Below are positions 12,611-25,931 of a stretch of 64,000 nucleotides of DNA, piece after piece; the stretch's first letter is position 1, and each line of letters starts with the position of its first letter. Source of the DNA: Chamaesiphon sp. Lineage in GTDB: Bacteria; Cyanobacteriota; Cyanobacteriia; Cyanobacteriales; Chamaesiphonaceae. The stretch covers positions 64,001 to 128,000 of the forward strand of contig CBDFFH010000034.1 of assembly GCA_965246715.1 (NCBI GenBank), read 5' to 3'. Below the pieces are notes generated by a model. It was not told the DNA's origin, searched no databases, and saw nothing but the letters and a program-made list of their open reading frames with translations. The translations under genes were made by a program, and so were the position numbers.

Positions 12611-12648
12611 AGGGCGGAAGCTATTTTTCCGGGTCGGATGGGTAGTAT
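12611..12648 (+). promoter_or_regulatory. Candidate WYL-regulator operator plus -10 box
   Basis: AGGGCGGAAGCTATTTTTCCGGG (CGGAA-N7-TTCCG) identical to 21187-21209; TAGTAT at 12643-12648. Confidence 0.7.
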
Positions 12649-12676: not shown

Positions 12677-13663
12677 ATGAATGACCGTCCAATTCAAATA
12701 GAAAGGTTTTTGGAGATCGATCGCTTGCTACGTGGGCGAGAACGACAGACGAATGGGAGTCTGTCAGAACATTTGGAAGTAAGCGATCGAACTATTCGCA
12801 CCGATCTGAAGTGGATGCGAGATCGCTATTGTGCGCCTGTTGAATTTTGCACTCAAAGAGGCTGGCACTATACCGATCCGGATTGGCGATTGCCAACGAT
12901 CCCGTTACATAAGGGGGAGTTATTTGCGCTGACTCTGGGAGCGCGAATGCTGGAGGCTTTTCACGGGACGACTTATGCTTTGGAGTTGAGAGCGGCGATC
13001 TCCAGATTGAGCGAAAGATTGCCGCAACAGAGTTGGGTAGATTTACAACAATTAGCAGACAATCGAATTAGCTTTCGATCGGGCGTACAAATCGATTTAG
13101 ATCCGGCAATTTGGCAGCAATTGGAAGATGCCTGTCGGGAACAGAAATCGGTGCAGATGCGCTACTATTCACCGCAGAATAATGAGACTACCGATCGAGG
13201 ATTCGATCCCTACCTGCTGCATATTTATCGCGGTACGAATCCTTATGTCATCGGTTATTGTCATTTGCGATCGGATATGCGCTGGTTTCGGGTCGATCGA
13301 ATTCGGAGTTTAACGTTACTGCCAGCTAGTTTCACCCGCAATCCGACGTTCGATCCGCAACAGCATTTAGCCAATATTTTTCAATATGAGGTGGGTGGGA
13401 AGCCTCGCGCTGTGGTGATTTGGTTCGATCCAAAAACGGCACCATTTATCCGCGAACGCCGCTGGCATCATACCCAAGAGATTGAAGAGCACTCTGATGG
13501 TGCGCTGACGTTGAAGATGGTGGTACCTGGAACGAATGATGTGAAGCGATGGGTGTTGGGATATGGGGTAGGCGCGATCGTGCGGGAGCCGCCAGAGTTA
13601 GTTGATTTGGTGTGTAGGGAAATCGAAGGGATGATGAGTGGTTATCAAAATTTAACTGTATGA
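12677..13663 (+). CDS. HTH-WYL-WCX transcriptional regulator (CRISPR-associated)
   Basis: HTH LEVSDRTIRTDL; WYL domain DPYLL..YVIGYCHLR..RWFRVDRI; WCX WVLGYG..VREPPEL. Confidence 0.92.
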   Translation: MNDRPIQIERFLEIDRLLRGRERQTNGSLSEHLEVSDRTIRTDLKWMRDRYCAPVEFCTQRGWHYTDPDWRLPTIPLHKGELFALTLGARMLEAFHGTTYALELRAAISRLSERLPQQSWVDLQQLADNRISFRSGVQIDLDPAIWQQLEDACREQKSVQMRYYSPQNNETTDRGFDPYLLHIYRGTNPYVIGYCHLRSDMRWFRVDRIRSLTLLPASFTRNPTFDPQQHLANIFQYEVGGKPRAVVIWFDPKTAPFIRERRWHHTQEIEEHSDGALTLKMVVPGTNDVKRWVLGYGVGAIVREPPELVDLVCREIEGMMSGYQNLTV

Positions 13664-13697
13664 GAGGTGTATTCAGATGAAAGGAGTGTTAGCCTTG

Positions 13698-13805
13698 GTT
13701 TACTCATTGATTGCGCCACAAGGCGTTGAGCAATATATCGCGTATGCTGCTCGACAGTGTATATTCACTGTTTCATCCATTGACCGCCCCGAGGCGATTT
13801 TAAAA
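13698..13805 (+). CRISPR. Degenerate one-spacer mini-array (CRISPR-like regulatory RNA)
   Basis: 36-nt pseudo-repeat GTTTACTCATTGATTGCGCCACAAGGCGTTGAGCAA (13698-13733) keeps the GCC-N4-GGCG stem and TTGAGCA handle of the main repeat; 36-nt spacer 13734-13769; second pseudo-repeat GTTTCATCCATTGACCGCCCCGAGGCG from 13770. Confidence 0.85.
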
Positions 13806-13808
13806 AAT

Positions 13809-13857
13809 AGCAGCGTACGCTATATACATTGCAAATTTTATAGCTTGATGATATTCT
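13809..13857 (+). promoter_or_regulatory. Promoter of the small ORF/cas operon, with mini-array target and PAM
   Basis: -35 TTGCAA 13829-13834, 17-bp spacer, extended -10 TG-A-TATTCT (hexamer 13852-13857); minus-strand protospacer 13809-13826 with 5' ATG. Confidence 0.75.
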
Positions 13858-13893
13858 ACGATTGTCAGCTAATTTTGTGATGGGTAATTTCAT

Positions 13894-14145
13894 ATGGATG
13901 AGGATCTACAGCATATTTATTCTGAAATTTCAAGTATCAGAAAAGGATTTACCTCCTGTCAAGCAGAGCTAAATTCCTCCCAGGCAAGGCTAGACTCCTC
14001 TCGATCTCGATTAGATGAGGTTGAGTTGCAGATGAGAAATATTGAGGTTTCGCTAGATCGGATCGAATGTTTAGAAAGTAGGGCAGATGTGTATTCTGAT
14101 AGCGGAGATTCCCTCGCTGACTGGCTATGTTCATCAAAACAGTAA
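13894..14145 (+). CDS. Hypothetical 83-aa coiled-coil protein, first gene of the cas operon
   Basis: ORF directly after the predicted promoter, heptad pattern (LNSSQARLDSSRSRLDEVELQMRNIEVSLDRI), ends 8 nt before cas6 ATG. Confidence 0.55.
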   Translation: MDEDLQHIYSEISSIRKGFTSCQAELNSSQARLDSSRSRLDEVELQMRNIEVSLDRIECLESRADVYSDSGDSLADWLCSSKQ

Positions 14146-14153
14146 ATGAGACT

Positions 14154-14822
14154 ATGAATTATTTAGAAATTCAATACAAGCTATGTGGCAAAACCTTACC
14201 AGCCGATCATGGATATGCACTATATTCTGCTATCAAAAAACTTGTTCTAGAGAGGCATGATGTCTATAAAAACTTACTTATAGATGGCTCTTTACATACA
14301 GATATATTAATCTCTAGTATTTCAGGCATACCAGATCGCAATAGAACGATATATCTCAATAAATTCTCACGGTTGCGGTTGCGCTGTCCTAGTGATGAAG
14401 TTCAAGTTTGTTATCGACTATTGCAAAATCAAGTACTCGATATTCAGGGGCATTTAATTAGATTAATTCAGCCGCAATTAACCTTGCCAGAAGTGAGTGA
14501 AACTCTGAGATCGAGATTAGTAACTTTTAAGCTGAAAGATTGGGATGAGCGTGAAGCTCCCGCACATTTTCTCACATCTTGTCAACGAGCCTTAGATCGT
14601 TTGGAAATTCAAGCTAAACCCTTTATTGATAGCGATCGATCTGGAGATCTTGCCAAGCGATCGCTATGTATTCATGGCAAACATGTAATGGGTTACGGGG
14701 TAGTAATTGAGGGTTTAAACCCCGATGATTCGATTAAACTGCAATGTCTGGGTTTAGGTGGGCGTAAGCATTTTGGCTGTGGCTGGTTTTATCCCAGCAA
14801 AGAGGTAGCCGATGCCAACTAA
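14154..14822 (+). CDS. cas6: Type I-B (Myxan) Cas6 endoribonuclease
   Basis: LPADHGYALYSAI N-terminus; G-rich loop GLGGRKHFGCGWF; start at ATG 14154 (ORF track 14127). Confidence 0.92.
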   Translation: MNYLEIQYKLCGKTLPADHGYALYSAIKKLVLERHDVYKNLLIDGSLHTDILISSISGIPDRNRTIYLNKFSRLRLRCPSDEVQVCYRLLQNQVLDIQGHLIRLIQPQLTLPEVSETLRSRLVTFKLKDWDEREAPAHFLTSCQRALDRLEIQAKPFIDSDRSGDLAKRSLCIHGKHVMGYGVVIEGLNPDDSIKLQCLGLGGRKHFGCGWFYPSKEVADAN

Positions 14823-17097
14823 ATTACCTCGTCAGTTACAGACAAATATTTTATTAGCAAAATCATTCAATCCTAAAACAGAAACTTGGCAAGGTGCTTA
14901 TACACTGCTCGGACATACAGTAGCAGTTGTAAATGCGGTGACAGCGATCGTGAATCATTTGGACGATCGATTGATTTCTCAATTTGGCTTAAATTGCGAT
15001 CTATCTTACTTATTAGCAACTGTAAGATTGGCTGCATATTTACACGATTGGGGTAAGGCTAATAGTAATTTTCAGCAGGTAGTGAGAAAGCAGCGAAATC
15101 CACTTGTCAATCCTCAAATGATTCGTCATGAGGTCGCTTCTGTTTTACTCGCATGGGAATTTCGAGAATGGTTGAGCCAAGCTGATGGGGATTTTTATAT
15201 CGCATTAGCTGCGGCTGGTGGACATCATCTTAAATTGGGTGGACGCAGCGGTAAAAGAAACGACGAGTTGGGTGAGTTGAGATTGGGAACTGAGGATGAA
15301 GAACTTCACCTATATACCAGTCATTCTAATTTCAAAGCATTATTAAAATATGGAGTCAGATCGGTAGGATTACCCCTAAAAATCAAGCTGACTCGTAAAC
15401 CTGCAAATAGTTGGTCTGTTAGTGAATTAAAACATACTAAACGGGACGAAATTCGGGCAGAGTTCGATCGATGGAAACCCGAGCCAGTTTTACTTGCAGT
15501 CGTCAAATCTTTGTTGGTAGCTGGAGATGCGATCGGCTCGGCATTACCACCACAGAAAATCGATATCAAAGCCTGGATTGAGGGCGAACTCTCGCAAACT
15601 TTGACTGTTGAAAAGTTAGAACGAGTGATTGAATCTCGGCTCAAACCTGGGGAATCATTACGCCCATTTCAAATCGATTTAGGAGCATCGACAGCACGAG
15701 TTACCCTCGCTAGAGCGGGTTGCGGTACGGGTAAAACTGTTGGCGCGTATAACTGGGCAAAACGTCATGCGATCGATCGGAAGCTGATTTTCTGCTATCC
15801 CACTACTGGTACAAGTACCGAAGGCTTTATTGATTACGTTCACAACCAGTTAGATTCAGAATTACTTCACTCTCGCGCCAATGTCGATCTCGAAGAATTT
15901 AAGAAACAAGAAAAGGAAAAAGAATTGACTGAACTTGCGGCTACAGGCGAAGAAGTCGATGCGGGAGATGGTACGGAAAATGAGACGGCTAAAAAACTCG
16001 AATCATTTAAAGCTTGGGGCAAAGAATCGATCGTTTGTACCGTCGATACTGTTTTGGGATTACTCCAGTGTAACCGCCGCCCGATGTATTTTTTCCCCGT
16101 TATCTCACAAGCTGCGTTTGTTTTTGACGAAGTGCATTGCTATGATGATTCGCTGTTTGGTGCATTACTGCGATTTCTGGAAGTCGTCAAAGCACCGATT
16201 TTGCTGATGTCTGCATCGATTCAACCTTGGCAATTAGAGGCGATCGAAACAGCCGTAGGCGAACCCGTAAATATCATCCAGGGAGCGGCAGATTTGGAGC
16301 AGCAGCCCCGTTATCGCTTTGAATATGCCGATGAGCCAAATTGGGAACGAGTGGCTCAGGAGCTAGAAAATGGCGGGAAGGTGCTGTGGGTTTGCAATCA
16401 GGTGAAAACAGCAATTGGGGTGTATTTAGAGGCTAAGGCAAAAAATTTGAATGCGGTACTCTATCACAGTCGCTATCGCTATCAGGATCGAGTCGAACAT
16501 CATCGATCGGTAGTGGATGGATTTAAACAGGATAAGCCCATTCTGGCGATCGCGACGCAAGTAGCCGAGATGTCATTAGACTTATCCGCAACACTGCTTG
16601 TGTCCCAAATTGCCAATCCTGCGGGGCTGATTCAACGCTTGGGACGGTTGAATCGTCGCTACTGTGGACATGCCTTAGATGCGCTATTTTACCCCGATGG
16701 GGTGCCGGGATATCCCTATGATGAACAAACCGATCTCGCAGAAGGGTTGCGGTTAATCCAGTCATTCGAGGGAGAAGTCAATCAAGCACAACTGGCGGAA
16801 TGGTTGGAAAAATCGGATCTTGGCGGTAAACCTAACAAAGATTCGGTGCTACTCGATGGCAAATGGCGCACTTATCCGACATCGTTACGAGATGCGGGAT
16901 ATACAACCACCGTATTACTGGAAGAGGATTTAAAAATGATTAAATCTCAGTCGGCGGGATTAATTCCGCGTTATACAGTTCCGTTAATTGTGAATAAGCA
17001 AAAGCTGGATAAATGGGAACGATATAAATACTATCCGATCGCACCGACTGCGGAATGGATCTATTCACAAGAAATCGGCGCACGGGAGGTGAAATAG
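14812..17097 (+). CDS. cas3: Cas3 HD nuclease-helicase
   Basis: LHDWGK, HE and GHH HD motifs; AGCGTGKT, DEVH, MSAS, YHSR, ATQVAEMSLD, QRLGRLNR. Confidence 0.95.
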   Translation: MPTKLPRQLQTNILLAKSFNPKTETWQGAYTLLGHTVAVVNAVTAIVNHLDDRLISQFGLNCDLSYLLATVRLAAYLHDWGKANSNFQQVVRKQRNPLVNPQMIRHEVASVLLAWEFREWLSQADGDFYIALAAAGGHHLKLGGRSGKRNDELGELRLGTEDEELHLYTSHSNFKALLKYGVRSVGLPLKIKLTRKPANSWSVSELKHTKRDEIRAEFDRWKPEPVLLAVVKSLLVAGDAIGSALPPQKIDIKAWIEGELSQTLTVEKLERVIESRLKPGESLRPFQIDLGASTARVTLARAGCGTGKTVGAYNWAKRHAIDRKLIFCYPTTGTSTEGFIDYVHNQLDSELLHSRANVDLEEFKKQEKEKELTELAATGEEVDAGDGTENETAKKLESFKAWGKESIVCTVDTVLGLLQCNRRPMYFFPVISQAAFVFDEVHCYDDSLFGALLRFLEVVKAPILLMSASIQPWQLEAIETAVGEPVNIIQGAADLEQQPRYRFEYADEPNWERVAQELENGGKVLWVCNQVKTAIGVYLEAKAKNLNAVLYHSRYRYQDRVEHHRSVVDGFKQDKPILAIATQVAEMSLDLSATLLVSQIANPAGLIQRLGRLNRRYCGHALDALFYPDGVPGYPYDEQTDLAEGLRLIQSFEGEVNQAQLAEWLEKSDLGGKPNKDSVLLDGKWRTYPTSLRDAGYTTTVLLEEDLKMIKSQSAGLIPRYTVPLIVNKQKLDKWERYKYYPIAPTAEWIYSQEIGAREVK

Positions 17098-17100
17098 TTA

Positions 17101-18606
17101 ATGTCAGAACTTACATTGTCGCTACTCGATCCGAATACTTTATTACCCCATCGAGCGGGAATTGCCGGATTAGCACTAGCATTATCTGAGATCGATCCCC
17201 AGGATGCTCCATTAACTTGGAATGTCACTGAAGATGCTGTAAATCTAACTTGGGAAGGTACAGATAAAGATGCCATTCACTGGTTGCTAAATCAAACTTA
17301 TCAGATTCAGAATGGCTATCTCAATGTCCCCGCACTCAAACTCGATTTACAATCCCGATATACATTTACTGAAGGCGTAACGGTGACACTATTACAACAT
17401 AGCAAGCAGCGCAATCGCGAGAAAAATACCGTCTCTTTGAATTTTGCGATCGAAGATGGACAGCCAGAAATTAGATTAGAATTTCGTCCAGTGATTGACT
17501 GCTACTATACTCGCGACATTTCCGATGCTTTCGACAAAAAAGGTAACTTCAAAAAAGCGATCGCGCTTAAAGGTCATCATTTACCTGGATTAGTTGAATG
17601 TTTTGTCAACGGAGCGTATCAAGAATCACCAACTGGATTCCTATCGCTGCTATTTCTCCCCCTTGCTTGCAGCTATTACAAATTGCCTGGATTCCTCGCC
17701 GCCTTAGTAATTCCAGAAGTAATAAACCTGGTGGAATGGGTAGCACAAAGACAGGAATCTTCAGGGCAAATATTTCAACGGCTCAAAGCTCCCTACGCAG
17801 ACTTTCGATCGAGTGGTGCGGGAGAATCCGCTCTTCGCTTTCTATTGCGGCAAAAAGTTATCGCAGGCGCTAAATATCTACCGATTCGTTATTGCGAGGT
17901 GTATCAACTGGGGAAACAACCTTGGGATGGCAATCAATCTTATCTCAAACAAGCCGTATATCGCGTAGAGGTGAAGCCAGAAATTTTAGAGCTATATGAT
18001 ATTGCCGAACAACTATTCCCTGCGAAGATTCGCCTGACTGATAAAGGTGAAAGCTGGCTGGCAATTTCTAAAGTATTGCCCTGGATTTCGGAAAATTTAG
18101 TACGGGGGAAACCTTGGTATAGCGGATTTTATGAATTTTACAAACGCAACGATATCTACGAACGTAAAGGACTAGTGAAAATGACAAATCATCTCACATC
18201 AGACGAACAAATTTTATTTGATGCTATGCAAGGATCTTTTCGGATCTATTTACGTGGGCAAATTATTCAAGCTCAAAAGCAAGGACGTAAACCCGATTAT
18301 CCGCAAATAACCGATAAAGTAATCTATCGCTTGCAACGTCCGAGTACCCAACAAGAATTTGCCACAGCATTAGTCGATTTCTTGAGTCAGTTTCGGAGTA
18401 AAGCCGCTCGATCTGCTGGTAGCCAAATTTATGCGTGGATTCACCGCGAAGGTAACTGGAAACAGGCGAGAGATTTGGTATTACTGGCGATCGCAACTTA
18501 TGCCAGTAAGAAAGAAGATAGTCCCGATGGCGTGGAAATCTCGATCGAATCAAATCCCGATCTGGAAACTGAAAATTCACCAGAATTTGAGATGGATCTC
18601 TCATGA
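17101..18606 (+). CDS. cas8: Type I-B large subunit Cas8 (Cmx8/Cas8a1-like)
   Basis: HRAGIAGL N-terminal motif; located between cas3 and cas7. Confidence 0.85.
   Translation: MSELTLSLLDPNTLLPHRAGIAGLALALSEIDPQDAPLTWNVTEDAVNLTWEGTDKDAIHWLLNQTYQIQNGYLNVPALKLDLQSRYTFTEGVTVTLLQHSKQRNREKNTVSLNFAIEDGQPEIRLEFRPVIDCYYTRDISDAFDKKGNFKKAIALKGHHLPGLVECFVNGAYQESPTGFLSLLFLPLACSYYKLPGFLAALVIPEVINLVEWVAQRQESSGQIFQRLKAPYADFRSSGAGESALRFLLRQKVIAGAKYLPIRYCEVYQLGKQPWDGNQSYLKQAVYRVEVKPEILELYDIAEQLFPAKIRLTDKGESWLAISKVLPWISENLVRGKPWYSGFYEFYKRNDIYERKGLVKMTNHLTSDEQILFDAMQGSFRIYLRGQIIQAQKQGRKPDYPQITDKVIYRLQRPSTQQEFATALVDFLSQFRSKAARSAGSQIYAWIHREGNWKQARDLVLLAIATYASKKEDSPDGVEISIESNPDLETENSPEFEMDLS
18181..18606 (+). CDS. 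cas11: Probable Cas11 small subunit from an internal in-frame start in cas8 (141 aa)
   Basis: AAAGGA at 18166-18171 upstream of in-frame ATG 18181 (GTG 18175 also in frame); helical C-terminal domain. Confidence 0.6.
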   Translation: MTNHLTSDEQILFDAMQGSFRIYLRGQIIQAQKQGRKPDYPQITDKVIYRLQRPSTQQEFATALVDFLSQFRSKAARSAGSQIYAWIHREGNWKQARDLVLLAIATYASKKEDSPDGVEISIESNPDLETENSPEFEMDLS

Positions 18607-18737: not shown

Positions 18738-19598
18738 ATGTCTAAACATTTATTTGCGACCATTGTTACATCTACTGCTGTTGCTGCCAATAACCGAGGT
18801 GAAGGCGATGGTAGTACCTTATCTACCCTCCAAAAAATCACTCGCGGTAACGACCAATACACGACAATTAGTGCTGAAGCAATTCGCTGGGGGTTGCGAG
18901 AATATTTGCAAAATCATCATCCTGAATTAACTAATCGTACCTTCGATCCTGACAAGGATCTATACAACTTTAAAGATGAAGTATTTAGTGCCAAAAAATA
19001 TATCGATGACGATCTATTTGGGTTTATGGACGCAAAGAAGGGGGCAAATAATGAAAATGCTACTAAAAAGCGTCGGGGTGCATTAGAAGTAAGCCGTGCT
19101 ATGAGTCTCGATCCTTATTGGGGTGATATCGCCTTTGGATCTAAAGGTGGAGAAAAAAATAAAACTTCGATTCATAGCACCGAAATTCACTGTACTGCTT
19201 ATCAATATACGATCGCACTTACACCCGAAAGTTTACAAGATTCTCAACGTGCAGCATTAGTACTCGATGCTATTTCCGCCGTGCGTCATGTGGGGGGGAA
19301 TCATGCGCGATTCCTGTATGATTTCCGTCCAGAATCGATCGTTATTCGCGTAACTCAAGATCCTAGTCCGTGGATTATGGATAGTTTTAAACGGATGGGA
19401 GAATCGATCGGTTGTCCGAAATTATTGCGATTGGTTGAAGTTGGTGATGTCAATCCTCACGAACTAATTGTAGCTGGTGAAGTTGCCGATACATTATACG
19501 GTCAAAAGCTTGCAGAGGCGGGTGTAAAAGTATTGCGCGGAGTAAAAGAAGCGATTTCTACCGCTCAAGAATTTTTAAAAACCGAGGTGAAAGCATGA
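18738..19598 (+). CDS. cas7: Cas7 (DevR/Cst2 family)
   Basis: AANNRGEG, LQKI, ISAEAIRWGLR, DDDLFGFM, VGGNHARFLYDF. Confidence 0.93.
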   Translation: MSKHLFATIVTSTAVAANNRGEGDGSTLSTLQKITRGNDQYTTISAEAIRWGLREYLQNHHPELTNRTFDPDKDLYNFKDEVFSAKKYIDDDLFGFMDAKKGANNENATKKRRGALEVSRAMSLDPYWGDIAFGSKGGEKNKTSIHSTEIHCTAYQYTIALTPESLQDSQRAALVLDAISAVRHVGGNHARFLYDFRPESIVIRVTQDPSPWIMDSFKRMGESIGCPKLLRLVEVGDVNPHELIVAGEVADTLYGQKLAEAGVKVLRGVKEAISTAQEFLKTEVKA

Positions 19599-20326
19599 TG
19601 CAATTATATTTAGATTGCCCCTGTACGAGTTTTCCCCGCAGTTTTGCACGGGATTACAAGGAAACCTATCAATATCCGCCGCCATCGACAGTCTATGGAA
19701 TGCTATTATCGCTAGTCGGCGAGATCGATCTGATGGCACATATTGGTGTGAAAATTGCGATCGGGATTATCGGCGACAATCGGCCAATATCTAAAATCGT
19801 TCGCAAACAAAGGAACCATAAATACGATAACGGTGGAAGTGAACACAAGAAGCGAGTTGCTAAATATGGAGAACGAGTTTATCCATCACAGTTATTATCT
19901 AAACCCAATCATCAAGAATTACTTACCGATCTCCAATTCGTTGTCAGTATAAATTCTAGTGCAGAAACTGCTACGCTGAAATTAATCGATTCCCCAAAGG
20001 GGACGCTATGCGAACGCATTGCCGTCGCCTTAGCTACTCCCAGTCAAATTACCCGTTTTGGTGGGTTGAGTTTGGGCGAGTCTTGGTCGTTAATTAATGG
20101 TGTCAGAACATATCGCGAATCCGATGGCGATATTCGGTGGTTGGTGAAAGATAAGCGGGGTTTAATTGGTTTGCCAGTTTGGATCGATCGATCCACCACT
20201 CAGGGGACATTCCAACGATTTAGCATGGGTGAGTTTAGCGAAGATGCCTGGGTTTCTATCTCCCCGCCGATTTCAGTCACTCCCACCACATCACCTAAAG
20301 CTACTCGTAAACCGAAAGTCACCTGA
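19595..20326 (+). CDS. cas5: Cas5 (DevS/Cmx5 family)
   Basis: SFPRSFARDYKETY.YPPPSTVYGMLLSLVG, RFGGLSLGES; ATGA overlap with cas7. Confidence 0.92.
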   Translation: MMQLYLDCPCTSFPRSFARDYKETYQYPPPSTVYGMLLSLVGEIDLMAHIGVKIAIGIIGDNRPISKIVRKQRNHKYDNGGSEHKKRVAKYGERVYPSQLLSKPNHQELLTDLQFVVSINSSAETATLKLIDSPKGTLCERIAVALATPSQITRFGGLSLGESWSLINGVRTYRESDGDIRWLVKDKRGLIGLPVWIDRSTTQGTFQRFSMGEFSEDAWVSISPPISVTPTTSPKATRKPKVT

Positions 20327-20507
20327 AATTTTGCAAGGATCTCCGGCTGTGTCGGATCGATCGCCAGTCGAAATTCCTGTATCCGTTGCCAGCAATAAGT
20401 TTTAGCCTTTTTTATGACTTCGGAGATCCTTAGAAATAGGAATAGTGTAAGGAGAAGAGTGAGTCTCAAGAGTGCAATTATCATTGATGCCGTTAGGCGT
20501 TGAGCAC
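20322..20507 (+). CRISPR. Leader-like region plus solo CRISPR repeat
   Basis: GTGCAATTATCATTGATGCCGTTAGGCGTTGAGCAC at 20472-20507 (36 nt; 3' 23 nt match the array repeat except one base); upstream TGCAAGGATCTC..CTGTGTCG resembles the start of the main leader (23219-23241). Confidence 0.8.
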
Positions 20508-20557
20508 TGAGCGCGAATGTTAAAATACAATTGTCTCAACCACCGAGGTAAATAGCA

Positions 20558-21186: not shown

Positions 21187-21224
21187 AGGGCGGAAGCTAT
21201 TTTTCCGGGGTGGGTGAGTAAGGT
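21187..21224 (+). promoter_or_regulatory. Second copy of candidate WYL operator plus -10 box upstream of cas4-cas1
   Basis: AGGGCGGAAGCTATTTTTCCGGG 21187-21209; TAAGGT 21219-21224 at the same offset as in the WYL promoter. Confidence 0.7.
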
Positions 21225-21256: not shown

Positions 21257-22909
21257 ATGTACGCTCTCGCGCCTGACTCCAGTACGATTCGTGTTTCTGC
21301 ACTTCATGCGCTCGCATATTGTCCACGATTATTCTATCTCGAAGAAGTCGAAGAACTCTATACTCAAGATGCTGCCGTATTTGCAGGTAGAAGGCTCCAT
21401 GCGGAACTAGAAAAACAAGAAGATGAGGATTGGGAAGAATTATTTCTCGAAAGTACCGAACTTGGCATTAGAGGGAGAGTTGACGCGCTCCGTACTCGTG
21501 ATGGACTGACTATTCCCTACGAACATAAGCGGGGTAAATGTCATCGAGATAAAGACAAGCAGCCACTAGCATGGGAGAGCGATCGCATCCAAATTCTCGC
21601 TTATGCTTGCTTGTTAGAATCAGCACTTGGGATTGCGATCGAGGAAGGTAGAATTCGCTATCATGCCGATAATGTTTTAATCCATATTCCCGTTGATGAT
21701 GCGGGGCGAAAATTAGTCAAAGAGGCGATCGAAAGAGCCTTTCACCTGCGGACTTCGCCCAGTCGTCCGCCGATTACTGATAACGAGCGGTTGTGCGCGA
21801 GGTGTTCGCTTGCACCTGTCTGTTTGCCTGAAGAAGCGCGGTTAAATCACGATCGCGATTGGCAGCCTGTGCGGTTATTTCCTGAAGATGATACTCGCAC
21901 GATCTTACATATTCTCGAACCTGGTACTAGTGTTGGCAAAAAGGGCGAACAGATTAAAATCTCTCGGAAAAACCAACCGATCGAAACTATTGCCGCAACA
22001 CATGTCGGGCAGGTAGTTCTACATAGTTATTCACAGATTTCGACCCAGGCTTTATATTTTTGTGCAGCGCAAGATATTGGGGTGCATTTGGTTTCTGGCG
22101 GTGGACGTTATCTCGGTAGTTTCGATCCTCGTGGGGGCAGTATTCAGCGACGAATTGGGCAATATCGATCGCTTACTAATCCCGAATTTTGTCTGAGTCT
22201 AGCCCAGAAGTTAGTAACTTGTCGCGGACAGGGACAGCGGAAGTTGTTGATGCGCTATCAACGAGGTTTGAAGAGTGTACCGGATGAGTTGACGCAGGCA
22301 ATCAATCAGATGAAGAAGGTGCTCAAAGAGATTCCGACGGTTAAATCTTTGGAGTCACTTTTGGGTTATGAGGGGAATTTAGCTGCTTTGTATTTTGGTT
22401 GTCTAACTTATATTATTAACGATCGAGTCTCGCCGAGTTTACATTTCGATCGGCGCAATCGTCGTCCCCCCAAGGATCGCTTTAATGCGCTGTTGAGTTT
22501 TGGTTATGCGCTTCTGCTCAAGGATGTGATGAATAGCATCCTGATGGTGGGATTAGAACCCGCTTTGGGCTTTTATCATCAGCCGCGTACTCAGGCTCCA
22601 CCGTTGGCGTTAGATTTGATGGAAATTTTTCGGGTGCCGTTGGTAGATGCGATCGTGTTGAGTTCGATTAATCGCTTGCAGTGGGATGTGAGTGCTGATT
22701 TCACGATCTTGGGGCAGCAGGTGTGGTTGAGCGATGTGGGGAAAAAGAAGTTTGTCAAGCTGTATGAGAGTCGCAAGACGGAGACTTACAAACATCCGGT
22801 GCTGGATTATTCTCTCAGTTATCGGCGATTGTTGGAGTTGGAGGTGCGATTGCTGGAAAAAGAGTGGAATGGCGAAGGTGAGGCGTTTGCAAAGTTAATC
22901 ATTCGGTAA
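21257..22909 (+). CDS. cas1: Cas4-Cas1 fusion (Myxan type)
   Basis: Cas4: YCPR, GRVD, EHKRG, QILAY, CARCSLAPVC; Cas1: GYEG, RNRRPPKDRFNALLSFGY, GFYHQP, DLMEIFR. Confidence 0.93.
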   Translation: MYALAPDSSTIRVSALHALAYCPRLFYLEEVEELYTQDAAVFAGRRLHAELEKQEDEDWEELFLESTELGIRGRVDALRTRDGLTIPYEHKRGKCHRDKDKQPLAWESDRIQILAYACLLESALGIAIEEGRIRYHADNVLIHIPVDDAGRKLVKEAIERAFHLRTSPSRPPITDNERLCARCSLAPVCLPEEARLNHDRDWQPVRLFPEDDTRTILHILEPGTSVGKKGEQIKISRKNQPIETIAATHVGQVVLHSYSQISTQALYFCAAQDIGVHLVSGGGRYLGSFDPRGGSIQRRIGQYRSLTNPEFCLSLAQKLVTCRGQGQRKLLMRYQRGLKSVPDELTQAINQMKKVLKEIPTVKSLESLLGYEGNLAALYFGCLTYIINDRVSPSLHFDRRNRRPPKDRFNALLSFGYALLLKDVMNSILMVGLEPALGFYHQPRTQAPPLALDLMEIFRVPLVDAIVLSSINRLQWDVSADFTILGQQVWLSDVGKKKFVKLYESRKTETYKHPVLDYSLSYRRLLELEVRLLEKEWNGEGEAFAKLIIR

Positions 22910-22916
22910 GATAATC

Positions 22917-23210
22917 ATGGCAGAAATTAGGCATTGGTATTTGGTTTGTTATGATATTCGCTGTCCGAAGCGGTGGCGGAAGGCGTATAAGTTATTGGGT
23001 GGTTATGGGGAGCGGGTGCAATATTCGATTTTTCGATGTCGATTATCACAACGCGATCGGGAAAAATTAAGATGGGAGTTAGAACAGATTCTCACGGCTG
23101 ATGATAGTCTGCTGTTGGCGGGTTTGTGTCATCGCTGTGAGGAGCGGGTGCAAAAGTGCAATCGCTCTGGGGTGTGGGCGGAGAATCCACCGAGTTTTCA
23201 GGTAATCTAG
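22917..23210 (+). CDS. cas2: Cas2
   Basis: YLVCYDI, YGERVQYSIFRC. Confidence 0.95.
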   Translation: MAEIRHWYLVCYDIRCPKRWRKAYKLLGGYGERVQYSIFRCRLSQRDREKLRWELEQILTADDSLLLAGLCHRCEERVQKCNRSGVWAENPPSFQVI

Positions 23211-23480: not shown

Positions 23481-25931
23481 GTGACTATACCTGTGATGCC
23501 GTAAGGCGTTGAGCACTTTATCTGCTTGAAGTTATTTTTTGGGTAATGCGATGTGACTATACCTGTGATGCCGTAAGGCGTTGAGCACTTTCCAGCCGCA
23601 GAGGCTAGCGTCCCCTCAGCACTCGTGACTATACCTGTGATGCCGTAAGGCGTTGAGCACTGAACGCGATCTCCTAAGAGAGCGGGTGAATTCTGGTGAC
23701 TATACCTGTGATGCCGTAAGGCGTTGAGCACTAAGTCTTGCCATTCTTGACCTTGGTCGTACCTTCGTGACTATACCTGTGATGCCGTAAGGCGTTGAGC
23801 ACAGTGACATTTATTTTTTCTTGGTTGGTGTATGCAGGTGACTATACCTGTGATGCCGTAAGGCGTTGAGCACTGATTGGATCTGCGAGTGTCCGCAAGA
23901 GTGTCGAGTGACTATACCTGTGATGCCGTAAGGCGTTGAGCACCTCGGCAAAATGCGCCATTTCGTGAAAAACATCAGGTGACTATACCTGTGATGCCGT
24001 AAGGCGTTGAGCACGTTGAGATAGGATCTCAATTCCAGTTCGACAATTCGTGACTATACCTGTGATGCCGTAAGGCGTTGAGCACTCGATGTTAATCGTG
24101 CCAAATGCCACTTTTAACGCGTGACTATACCTGTGATGCCGTAAGGCGTTGAGCACTAGACCGCTGGTTAGCATGATGCGCAATATGAGCGTGACTATAC
24201 CTGTGATGCCGTAAGGCGTTGAGCACATGAGTAATTGTTGAGTTAGTTTAATCTGTCTAAGTGTGACTATACCTGTGATGCCGTAAGGCGTTGAGCACCT
24301 AGATCGATATCGCCAATTACCCCCTTCTTACTGATGTGACTATACCTGTGATGCCGTAAGGCGTTGAGCACACACGACGGCTAGTTTTATTTATGGGGAC
24401 GTGACGTGACTATACCTGTGATGCCGTAAGGCGTTGAGCACTATTCTTTGGATTCGGGATCGTCGCTTCCATCCTGTGACTATACCTGTGATGCCGTAAG
24501 GCGTTGAGCACAAGAACGCGATCGTGATTCTCTCCCCTACTATGGTGGTGACTATACCTGTGATGCCGTAAGGCGTTGAGCACCTTATTTTAATGCGACC
24601 CGTGGGTTTAAAATCACGTGACTATACCTGTGATGCCGTAAGGCGTTGAGCACCAAGTGCCGAGGGCACGCTATCATCTGCGGCTGGAGTGACTATACCT
24701 GTGATGCCGTAAGGCGTTGAGCACAGATCCACGTAATTTGCTTGATGAAGCGACACGGCAGTGACTATACCTGTGATGCCGTAAGGCGTTGAGCACGTAG
24801 GTAGCTAAACCAGCCATCATCATCCCAATAGTGACTATACCTGTGATGCCGTAAGGCGTTGAGCACGACTAATAAATAATGGCTAGCGATCGGCTCCAGC
24901 TGTGACTATACCTGTGATGCCGTAAGGCGTTGAGCACCCCAGAAAGATCGCCATGGAGAAATTCCATCGAGGTGACTATACCTGTGATGCCGTAAGGCGT
25001 TGAGCACCGGATGAGTGGAGAAAAGGAGCGTCACCGTGGATGTGACTATACCTGTGATGCCGTAAGGCGTTGAGCACCGGATGAGTGGAGAAAAGGAGCG
25101 TCACCGTGGATGTGACTATACCTGTGATGCCGTAAGGCGTTGAGCACCGGCGCGTGTTTATTAACCTCGCGGATAATTACTGGTGACTATACCTGTGATG
25201 CCGTAAGGCGTTGAGCACAGACTGTCGATGCGCAAGGCTACACCACTTGTCGGTGACTATACCTGTGATGCCGTAAGGCGTTGAGCACACTGAACTCTGC
25301 GATCGATACGGACTAGCGAGCTGGTGACTATACCTGTGATGCCGTAAGGCGTTGAGCACGATAGAGATTTGGAAAAAAGCTTTAAGGATAGATTACGAGT
25401 GACTATACCTGTGATGCCGTAAGGCGTTGAGCACACCAGTAGGCAGATTTGGGAAACCTTCGATCGGTGTGACTATACCTGTGATGCCGTAAGGCGTTGA
25501 GCACAAGGCTTAGGTGACATCGCCTGAAATATCGTTCAAGGTGACTATACCTGTGATGCCGTAAGGCGTTGAGCACGTATTAGCGGTATCGATCGCTTGT
25601 TGTAAAGCAAGATGTGACTATACCTGTGATGCCGTAAGGCGTTGAGCACATTTATTCGATGGGTGAATAAATCTAGTATGCAGGTGACTATACCTGTGAT
25701 GCCGTAAGGCGTTGAGCACACAAGTTAGGTATCGACCCTAAAGGTCTACTCAACGTGACTATACCTGTGATGCCGTAGGGCGTTGAGCACTTAACAGTGG
25801 CGATATTGTCTGCAAAGCAGGGTTGTGACTATACCTGTGATGCCGTAAGGCGTTGAGCACTTCTCAAGTAATAACTGTCGTCTTTGAGCTGCTTTGTGAC
25901 TATACCTGTGATACCGTAAAGCGTTGAGCGC
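23481..25931 (+). CRISPR. CRISPR array, 35 repeats / 34 spacers (34-39 nt)
   Basis: Repeat GTGACTATACCTGTGATGCCGTAAGGCGTTGAGCAC (36 nt); variant at 25755; degenerate terminal repeat 25896-25931; counted by hand. Confidence 0.98.

Follow-up and report, generated by a model that had tools for sequence, protein, structure and literature searches.

Small RNAs that guide Cascade to a promoter make up a known mechanism class, the CreR/CreA type, which was described in 2021–2024 and to which a sequence-only reading had already assigned the element discussed here. In CreR, as presented in the main text by Liu et al. (bioRxiv 10.1101/2023.03.10.532045), there are two degenerate repeats of which the first keeps its 5' handle, and a partial, PAM-flanked match lies at the cas promoter. 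Our element has the same layout, and type I-B is among the CreR subtypes named there. The CreR RNAs that were tested come from haloarchaeal I-B, I-E and V-A systems and, unlike the present element, have no cargo gene; that main text has no mention of cyanobacteria, WYL or Myxococc. Shmakov et al. (bioRxiv 10.1101/2023.03.03.530964) report mini-arrays in ∼19% of bacterial I-B loci. Their I-B mini-arrays aimed at the cas6 promoter, with a degraded distal repeat, are similar to ours, as are the gaps between cas3 and cas10d in I-D loci, where TA and other cargo lies behind predicted targets. No description of a single cargo family common to I-B2, I-C and I-D was found in the text of that preprint. 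In CrePA (Shu et al., bioRxiv 10.1101/2024.01.05.574328) a mini-array, its target and an ORF of ∼100 aa share a gap in the cas operon, again as in our case. The cargo there, CreP, is a toxic KilAC protein that is nearly confined to I-F loci according to the preprint text. Another likeness is CRISIS (Shu et al., bioRxiv 10.1101/2024.12.27.630466), where a crlRNA keeps non-cas genes within type I operons repressed, the I-C PAM is TTC, mismatches are found at positions 6 and 12 as here, and the target lies some 40 nt upstream of the TSS. The CRISIS systems covered in that text come from I-C loci; they are either enzymes, membrane proteins or systems of several genes. For the Cascade itself, the closest study is that of Lu et al. 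(PMC11096372) on the Myxan I-B Cascade of Synechocystis PCC 6714, whose accessible text gives an AYG PAM, a crRNA of ∼71 nt, recruitment of Cas3 after full R-loop formation and a flipped sixth base, the last of which the sequence-only reading had stated for type I Cascades. In the literature that we searched, mainly open-access papers and the main text of the bioRxiv preprints, no description was found of such an element in cyanobacterial I-B2 loci or of its cargo family, and the CRISPR-regulation papers searched by term do not mention cyanobacteria.

The locus that we describe lies in a 64,000-nucleotide stretch of Chamaesiphon sp. DNA (the window; positions are on its plus strand unless stated otherwise), and its closest relatives are also labelled Chamaesiphon. 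The genes are arranged as WYL, cas6, cas3, cas8, cas7, cas5, Uma2, cas4/1, cas2 and array, which is type I-B2 (I-MYXAN); a search of the genome gave no further copy of these genes. The assignment follows from a Cmx6, a Cmx-type Cas8, a DevR-type Cas7, a Cas3 and a Cas4/1 fusion, with TIGR02807, TIGR03485, TIGR02585, TIGR01587 and TIGR03983 all above cut-off. The first gene encodes an HTH-WYL-WCX transcription regulator (12677–13663; Pfam PF13280 and PF25583). Upstream of it is an inverted repeat, CGGAA-N7-TTCCG (12615–12631), with an identical second copy upstream of cas4/1 (21191–21207). The repeat is a candidate WYL operator that would link WYL to the adaptation genes. There are seven exact copies of it in the genome, and it is also found in L001, again at the two positions, and in front of WYL in L002, L041 and L088. 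The interference genes are cas6 (Cmx6, TIGR02807; 14154–14822, with a likely start at 14154 and the longest ORF from 14127), cas3 (14812–17097), cas8/cmx (17101–18606), cas7 (18738–19598) and cas5 (19595–20326). In the 3' part of cas8 (18175–18606), in-frame GTG/ATG starts behind AAAGGA are a candidate internal Cas11 start, giving 141–143 aa. The cas4/cas1 fusion and cas2 (21257–23210) are followed by the main CRISPR array (23481–25931), which contains 34 repeats whose 5' part is intact, a degenerate final repeat, and spacers of 34–39 nt; spacers 22 and 23 are identical (25008–25111). Between cas5 and Uma2 (20326–20557) there is a partial leader, one repeat (20472–20507) and a trailer. Since L001 has a long array at the same place, the window contains a collapsed array there. 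This lone repeat was considered as a second regulator and rejected, as no target was found for it.

The mini-array is found between WYL and cas6. Pseudo-repeat 1 (13698–13733) is 36 nt long and identical to the array repeat at 20/36 positions; it keeps the four-pair stem (13714–13725), for which a hairpin is predicted, and seven of the eight bases of the handle (13726–13733). It is followed by a spacer (13734–13768), of which the first 18 nt (13734–13751) are the guide, and by pseudo-repeat 2 (13769–13804), where the stem (13785–13796) is kept and the handle is missing. The sequence-only reading had described both pseudo-repeats correctly and had placed a 36-nt spacer between them. Its spacer length has to be corrected. 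The second stem ends at 13796, at the distance from the start of the guide (63 nt) that a regular spacer-repeat unit would have, which gives a spacer of 35 nt and a predicted mature RNA of 71 nt. It is characteristic of the CreR/CreA type that a lone repeat with a Cas6 stem and a 5' handle is followed by a degraded second repeat. A candidate extended -10 (TGnTAnnnT, 13687–13695), predicted to serve the guide RNA, is kept in 5/5 aligned loci. An Rfam search gave 0 matches. A folding prediction for the naked RNA has handle and guide folded on themselves, which counts against the best explanation given below. Just 5' of pseudo-repeat 1, the window and many relatives have a purine-rich stretch and a start codon, giving an ORF that runs through the mini-array (13677–13880). 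As a coding sequence this ORF was rejected; its length is not conserved, and in L001 a stop interrupts it at guide position 12.

The target of the guide is a partial protospacer at 13826–13809 on the minus strand. As the sequence-only reading stated exactly, guide nt 1–18 match it except at positions 6 and 12, i.e. at 16/18 positions, and only 3/18 of the next 18 positions match. Such a seed-anchored match, with mismatches at 6 and 12 and too short for a full R-loop, is again typical of CreR/CreA-type RNAs. The protospacer is flanked by 5'-ATG-3' (13827–13829, minus strand), which is taken as the PAM on the basis of the sequence, of a PAM-blind test (below) and of the published AYG (PMC11096372). 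The complement of this ATG shares one base with the -35 box of a predicted promoter (13829–13857), made up of TTGCAA (13829–13834), a 17-nt gap and TATTCT (13852–13857), with an upstream TG that makes an extended -10. The overlap and the two promoter boxes had been described before and are correct, but the promoter is not listed by the consensus scan, where it reaches 8/12 matches against a cut-off of 9. It therefore stays a prediction supported by conservation, with the -35/extended -10 geometry kept in L001, L002, L103 and L104. If every sixth base is ignored, the target is the best non-self match of the guide in the 6.1 Mb genome (a run of 17; next best 13). It is also the sole ATG-flanked site in the genome with a seed of at least 9/10, beside one weaker ACG site (9/15). 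A 15/15 match within the same 700 nt was found for 0/3000 shuffled guides and 0/33 array spacers. The array spacers gave no protospacer in 50,697 phage records nor in the genome itself, so the PAM could not be read from them.

Using cas6 or cas8, 76 locus records were collected, of which about six are duplicates, one has no cas hit and many are incomplete. Among them, 17 distinct loci have a stand-alone repeat with a partial target (L016 and L023 judged by eye), either upstream of cas6 or between cas3 and cas8. Five loci can be aligned over the whole WYL-cas6 gap, and here a change in the guide at a paired position goes along with a corresponding change in the target. The changes are compensated in 5/5 cases between the window and L002, in 7/8 between the window and L103, and in 7/7 between L002 and L103; this is the guide/target covariation that the sequence-only reading had proposed to look for. 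Two further contig runs added only two substitutions, both outside the paired part of the guide. In the PAM-blind test, the best site of each guide was taken with the PAM ignored, for 24 stand-alone repeats with 18 distinct guides. These were hand-picked with their matches already known, and many of them are related; targetless lone repeats near arrays or behind cas5 (L004, L017, L041, L076 and the one ending at 20507 in the window) were excluded. In this hand-picked set the best site is preceded by ATG in 23/24 repeats (17/18 distinct guides), compared to 0/33 array spacers and 50/3000 shuffles, and position 6 is mismatched in 19/23. The one miss is L106, where ATG is present and the target has a one-base bulge. 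Both in L106 and in L144, the target has no base opposite guide position 6, the flipped position, and the remainder matches. ATG had been named before as the reported PAM of cyanobacterial I-B/Cmx8 Cascades; the test bears out ATG itself, while the published PAM is AYG and not only ATG (PMC11096372). Having a target flanked by the PAM of the system itself is a further trait of CreR/CreA-type RNAs. A second stem was detected in 14/15 loci checked, and in nine of these it ends 62–67 nt past the guide start.

These comparisons also bear on the idea that guide and target are an inverted duplication or an RNA/DNA hairpin with no relation to Cascade. In the window the two copies are indeed inverted, at a distance of ∼90 nt, and a read-through transcript might let them pair. 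However, most relatives have the target in the same orientation as the guide, as a direct copy, and this arrangement rules out a hairpin; the PAM that follows the subtype and the mismatches at 6 and 12 are further points against it, and we regard it as extremely improbable. Two variations on the arrangement were seen among the relatives. One guide can have two PAM-flanked targets (L007, L009, L022, L035, L113, L115, L116, L127 and L149), and in L115, L116 and L127 one of the two starts at the ATG that opens the longest cas6 ORF. Extra repeat-like stems are found within presumed cas mRNA leaders, upstream of cas6 in L069 and L070 and in the cas8-cas7 gap of L016 (8762–8829), and could be sites where Cas6 cuts mRNA of the system itself.

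Covariation, the ATG recovered without regard to the PAM, the position-6 mismatches and the conserved second stem all support the earlier claim of a Cascade-guiding RNA aimed at a promoter. The element is almost certainly a regulatory RNA of the CreR/CreA-type class. On the sequence evidence, it is very probable that the crRNA-like RNA of the mini-array guides the locus's own I-B2 Cascade, and that it represses the cargo together with cas6-cas3-cas8-cas7-cas5 without cutting. The individual steps, from transcription, Cas6 cleavage and loading to repression, cargo/cas co-transcription and release, are modelled on work on CreR, CreA and CRISIS. The mini-array would most likely be transcribed from the extended -10 at 13687–13695 or by WYL read-through, and Cas6 would cut after each stem, leaving a crRNA-like RNA of ∼71 nt. 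Cascade loaded with this RNA would bind the ATG-flanked 18-nt partial target at the predicted -35 box. There the R-loop would be too short for Cas3, so that no cleavage would follow, and RNA polymerase would be blocked at the -35 box. As cas6 likely begins 8 nt past the cargo stop, one promoter would serve the cargo and the interference genes, which would give negative feedback. Repression would lift when crRNAs dilute Cascade, when Cascade is lost or when anti-CRISPRs inhibit it.

In a rival arrangement, the guide would mainly silence the cargo and the cas genes would be expressed mostly from a WYL-controlled upstream promoter, with little feedback on cas. WYL abuts cas6 in the cassette-free relatives L005, L007, L008, L016 and L041, the candidate WYL operator lies upstream, and no terminator was found behind WYL, before the mini-array cassette, so read-through could bypass the repressed promoter. 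Against this, the likely cas6 start so close to the cargo stop means that transcription from the targeted promoter should continue into cas6. WYL read-through would also transcribe the cargo, though bound Cascade might block read-through. Silencing mainly of the cargo is in our view improbable, and joint repression of cargo and cas genes is preferred.

The cargo is an 83-aa coiled-coil protein (13894–14145) with the C-terminal sequence YSDSGDSLADW, belonging to what we call the PYSxDG family. As in CrePA and CreTA, it is a small conserved gene directly behind the targeted promoter. The 83-codon ORF has no Pfam or NCBIfam family above cut-off, and its model consists of one long helix and a short C-terminal helix (pLDDT 89). 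It is under purifying selection, with pN values clearly lower than pS in those CRISPR-linked pairs that were tested (for example 0.028 vs 0.142 and 0.084 vs 0.31). A word search with the lone protein as query found no relative. A profile search gave 211 representatives at 50% clustering; among the best 150 of these, 139 have at most 170 aa, and 106 of the 139 carry the C-terminal motif, with the consensus EL-C-x-x-D/N-PYS-x-DG-D-A-I-CN. The family comprises well over 100 sequence clusters. It was not found in viral contigs or phages, nor in plasmids apart from one chance-level hit. Solved structures returned generic coiled coils only, a fold search in viral models had no match at E≤0.001, and all leads for the cargo from an atlas search were <0.9. 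PADLOC gave weak coiled-coil matches (E ∼0.003–0.009) in 2/24 members, and overall no enzyme domain, catalytic fold or structural match was found. The cargo tree (36 rows, 68 columns) has support for 5/33 branches and therefore cannot order events. The protein was rejected as CreP proper, having no KilAC or other family above cut-off and a locus of type I-MYXAN, not I-F. In contrast to CreP, the cargo is a coiled coil with a PYSxDG tail that occurs in three other subtypes. The CRISIS systems are set apart by their descriptions (10.1101/2024.12.27.630466), none of which, in the preprint text, fits a soluble coiled coil of 60–110 aa.

In the Cmx records the cargo is present in 6/76, always with a guide (6/6), and those six or near-copies were used to build the profile. 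An order-wide sample (33 of 401 genomes) contained 28 new cargo loci: 15 in type I cas operons, 10 behind an unknown gene of ∼290 aa, and three elsewhere. Twelve of the 15 cas-operon loci have a clear guide and PAM, two have weaker ones and one has none; no clear guide was seen in L121. For the 10 loci behind the ∼290-aa gene, no cas gene lies within the region in view, and a guide was absent wherever we inspected them for one. In a class-wide sample, taken from 30 of 401 genomes, there were 29 other loci, of which L153, L155, L157 and L158, generic coiled coils without the motif, were dropped before counting. Of the 25 motif-bearing copies left, 24 are in cas loci, six of them I-B2, six I-C and 12 I-D (the subtypes of L131 and L149 were judged partly by eye, and the query alignment already contained two of the 24). 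In 22/24 the cargo lies behind a guide with the PAM of its subtype, ATG for I-B2, TTC for I-C and GTT/GTC for I-D; 18 of these were found by script and four by eye, two of the four with a one-base bulge. GTN is the PAM of type I-D. Some of these I-D loci may be included in Fig. 6 or the supplement of Shmakov et al. (10.1101/2023.03.03.530964). The small ORF had been seen before as a mere passenger; instead, its family is conserved and found repeatedly behind guides of this kind in three subtypes. Where the guide is absent (L142) or the target bulged (L106), the cargo looks broken, which is anecdotal; L143 has an intact cargo outside the reach of the targeted promoter.

Outside CRISPR loci, the protein that precedes the cargo is all-helical, ∼290 aa long and often encoded beside a hemC-like gene (L109:508–1383, L101, L102, L110, L111 and L122–L124). 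In one case, P0052, cargo and partner are fused in a single protein. The partner model has a pTM of 0.82; no family match and no PDB match were found, and the atlas search gave nothing usable. A second, unrelated cargo also occurs behind ATG-aimed guides. It has ∼86 aa, is excisionase/HTH-like by weak PHROG hits, and fills the cas3-cas8 gap of seven I-B2 loci (L006, L016, L023, L026, L027, L032 and L085), with L022 similar. It begins with a QL(T/N/S)L(L/F) stretch reminiscent of a sliding-clamp-binding motif.

If the system were plain CreR autoregulation, the guide would only tune cas, and the cargo would be a harmless co-regulated accessory or adaptor whose tail binds a partner, either a Cas protein or the ∼290-aa protein. 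Loci with a guide and no cargo (L069, L070 and L073) are consistent with this, as are the cargo copies without cas genes beside the ∼290-aa partner, the fusion to it, the operon-member-like position between cas6 and cas3 in L113, L115, L116 and L127, and the lack of a catalytic fold. However, the cargo is missing from 70/76 Cmx records, so Cascade does not need it. Its occurrence with three unrelated Cascade types is easier to reconcile with a host target than with a Cas subunit, and the unrelated HTH cargo takes the same slot in seven loci. We consider plain autoregulation unlikely. Because the cargo family recurs behind guides in three subtypes, guide and cargo together look more like a CreA-type cassette, i.e. 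a guide with a repressed cargo, than a bare CreR. As a tentative proposal, the cargo could be a growth-inhibiting or abortive effector that makes Cascade loss costly, similar to CreP and CRISIS. This is favoured since the cargo is absent from most Cmx loci, is found with three unrelated Cascades, and looks broken in L142 and L106. Counted against toxicity are the copies with the ∼290-aa partner outside cas loci, the P0052 fusion, L143 and the absence of a catalytic fold. An accessory or adaptor function is ranked behind the effector, as a rather doubtful option. More guardedly than the effector role as such, we suggest that the PYSxDG protein might be a portable, non-enzymatic cyanobacterial toxin or abortive-infection effector, used with the ∼290-aa partner outside CRISPR and brought under the control of Cascade in three type I subtypes, with a guide rebuilt each time from the repeat and PAM of the subtype, which would make it a shared dead-man switch against anti-CRISPRs.

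With the regulatory RNA, a known class now reaches into the cyanobacterial I-B2 branch, and its covariation is unusually clean and reads out the PAM without any protospacer. What is new is an unannotated small-protein family that three type I subtypes keep behind guide-targeted promoters. If the cargo is toxic, it would be a new anti-anti-CRISPR effector in cyanobacteria and would offer a ready screen for cyanophage anti-CRISPRs. It would also be relevant to the repurposing of endogenous cyanobacterial type I systems, because loading Cascade with other guides would derepress the cargo.
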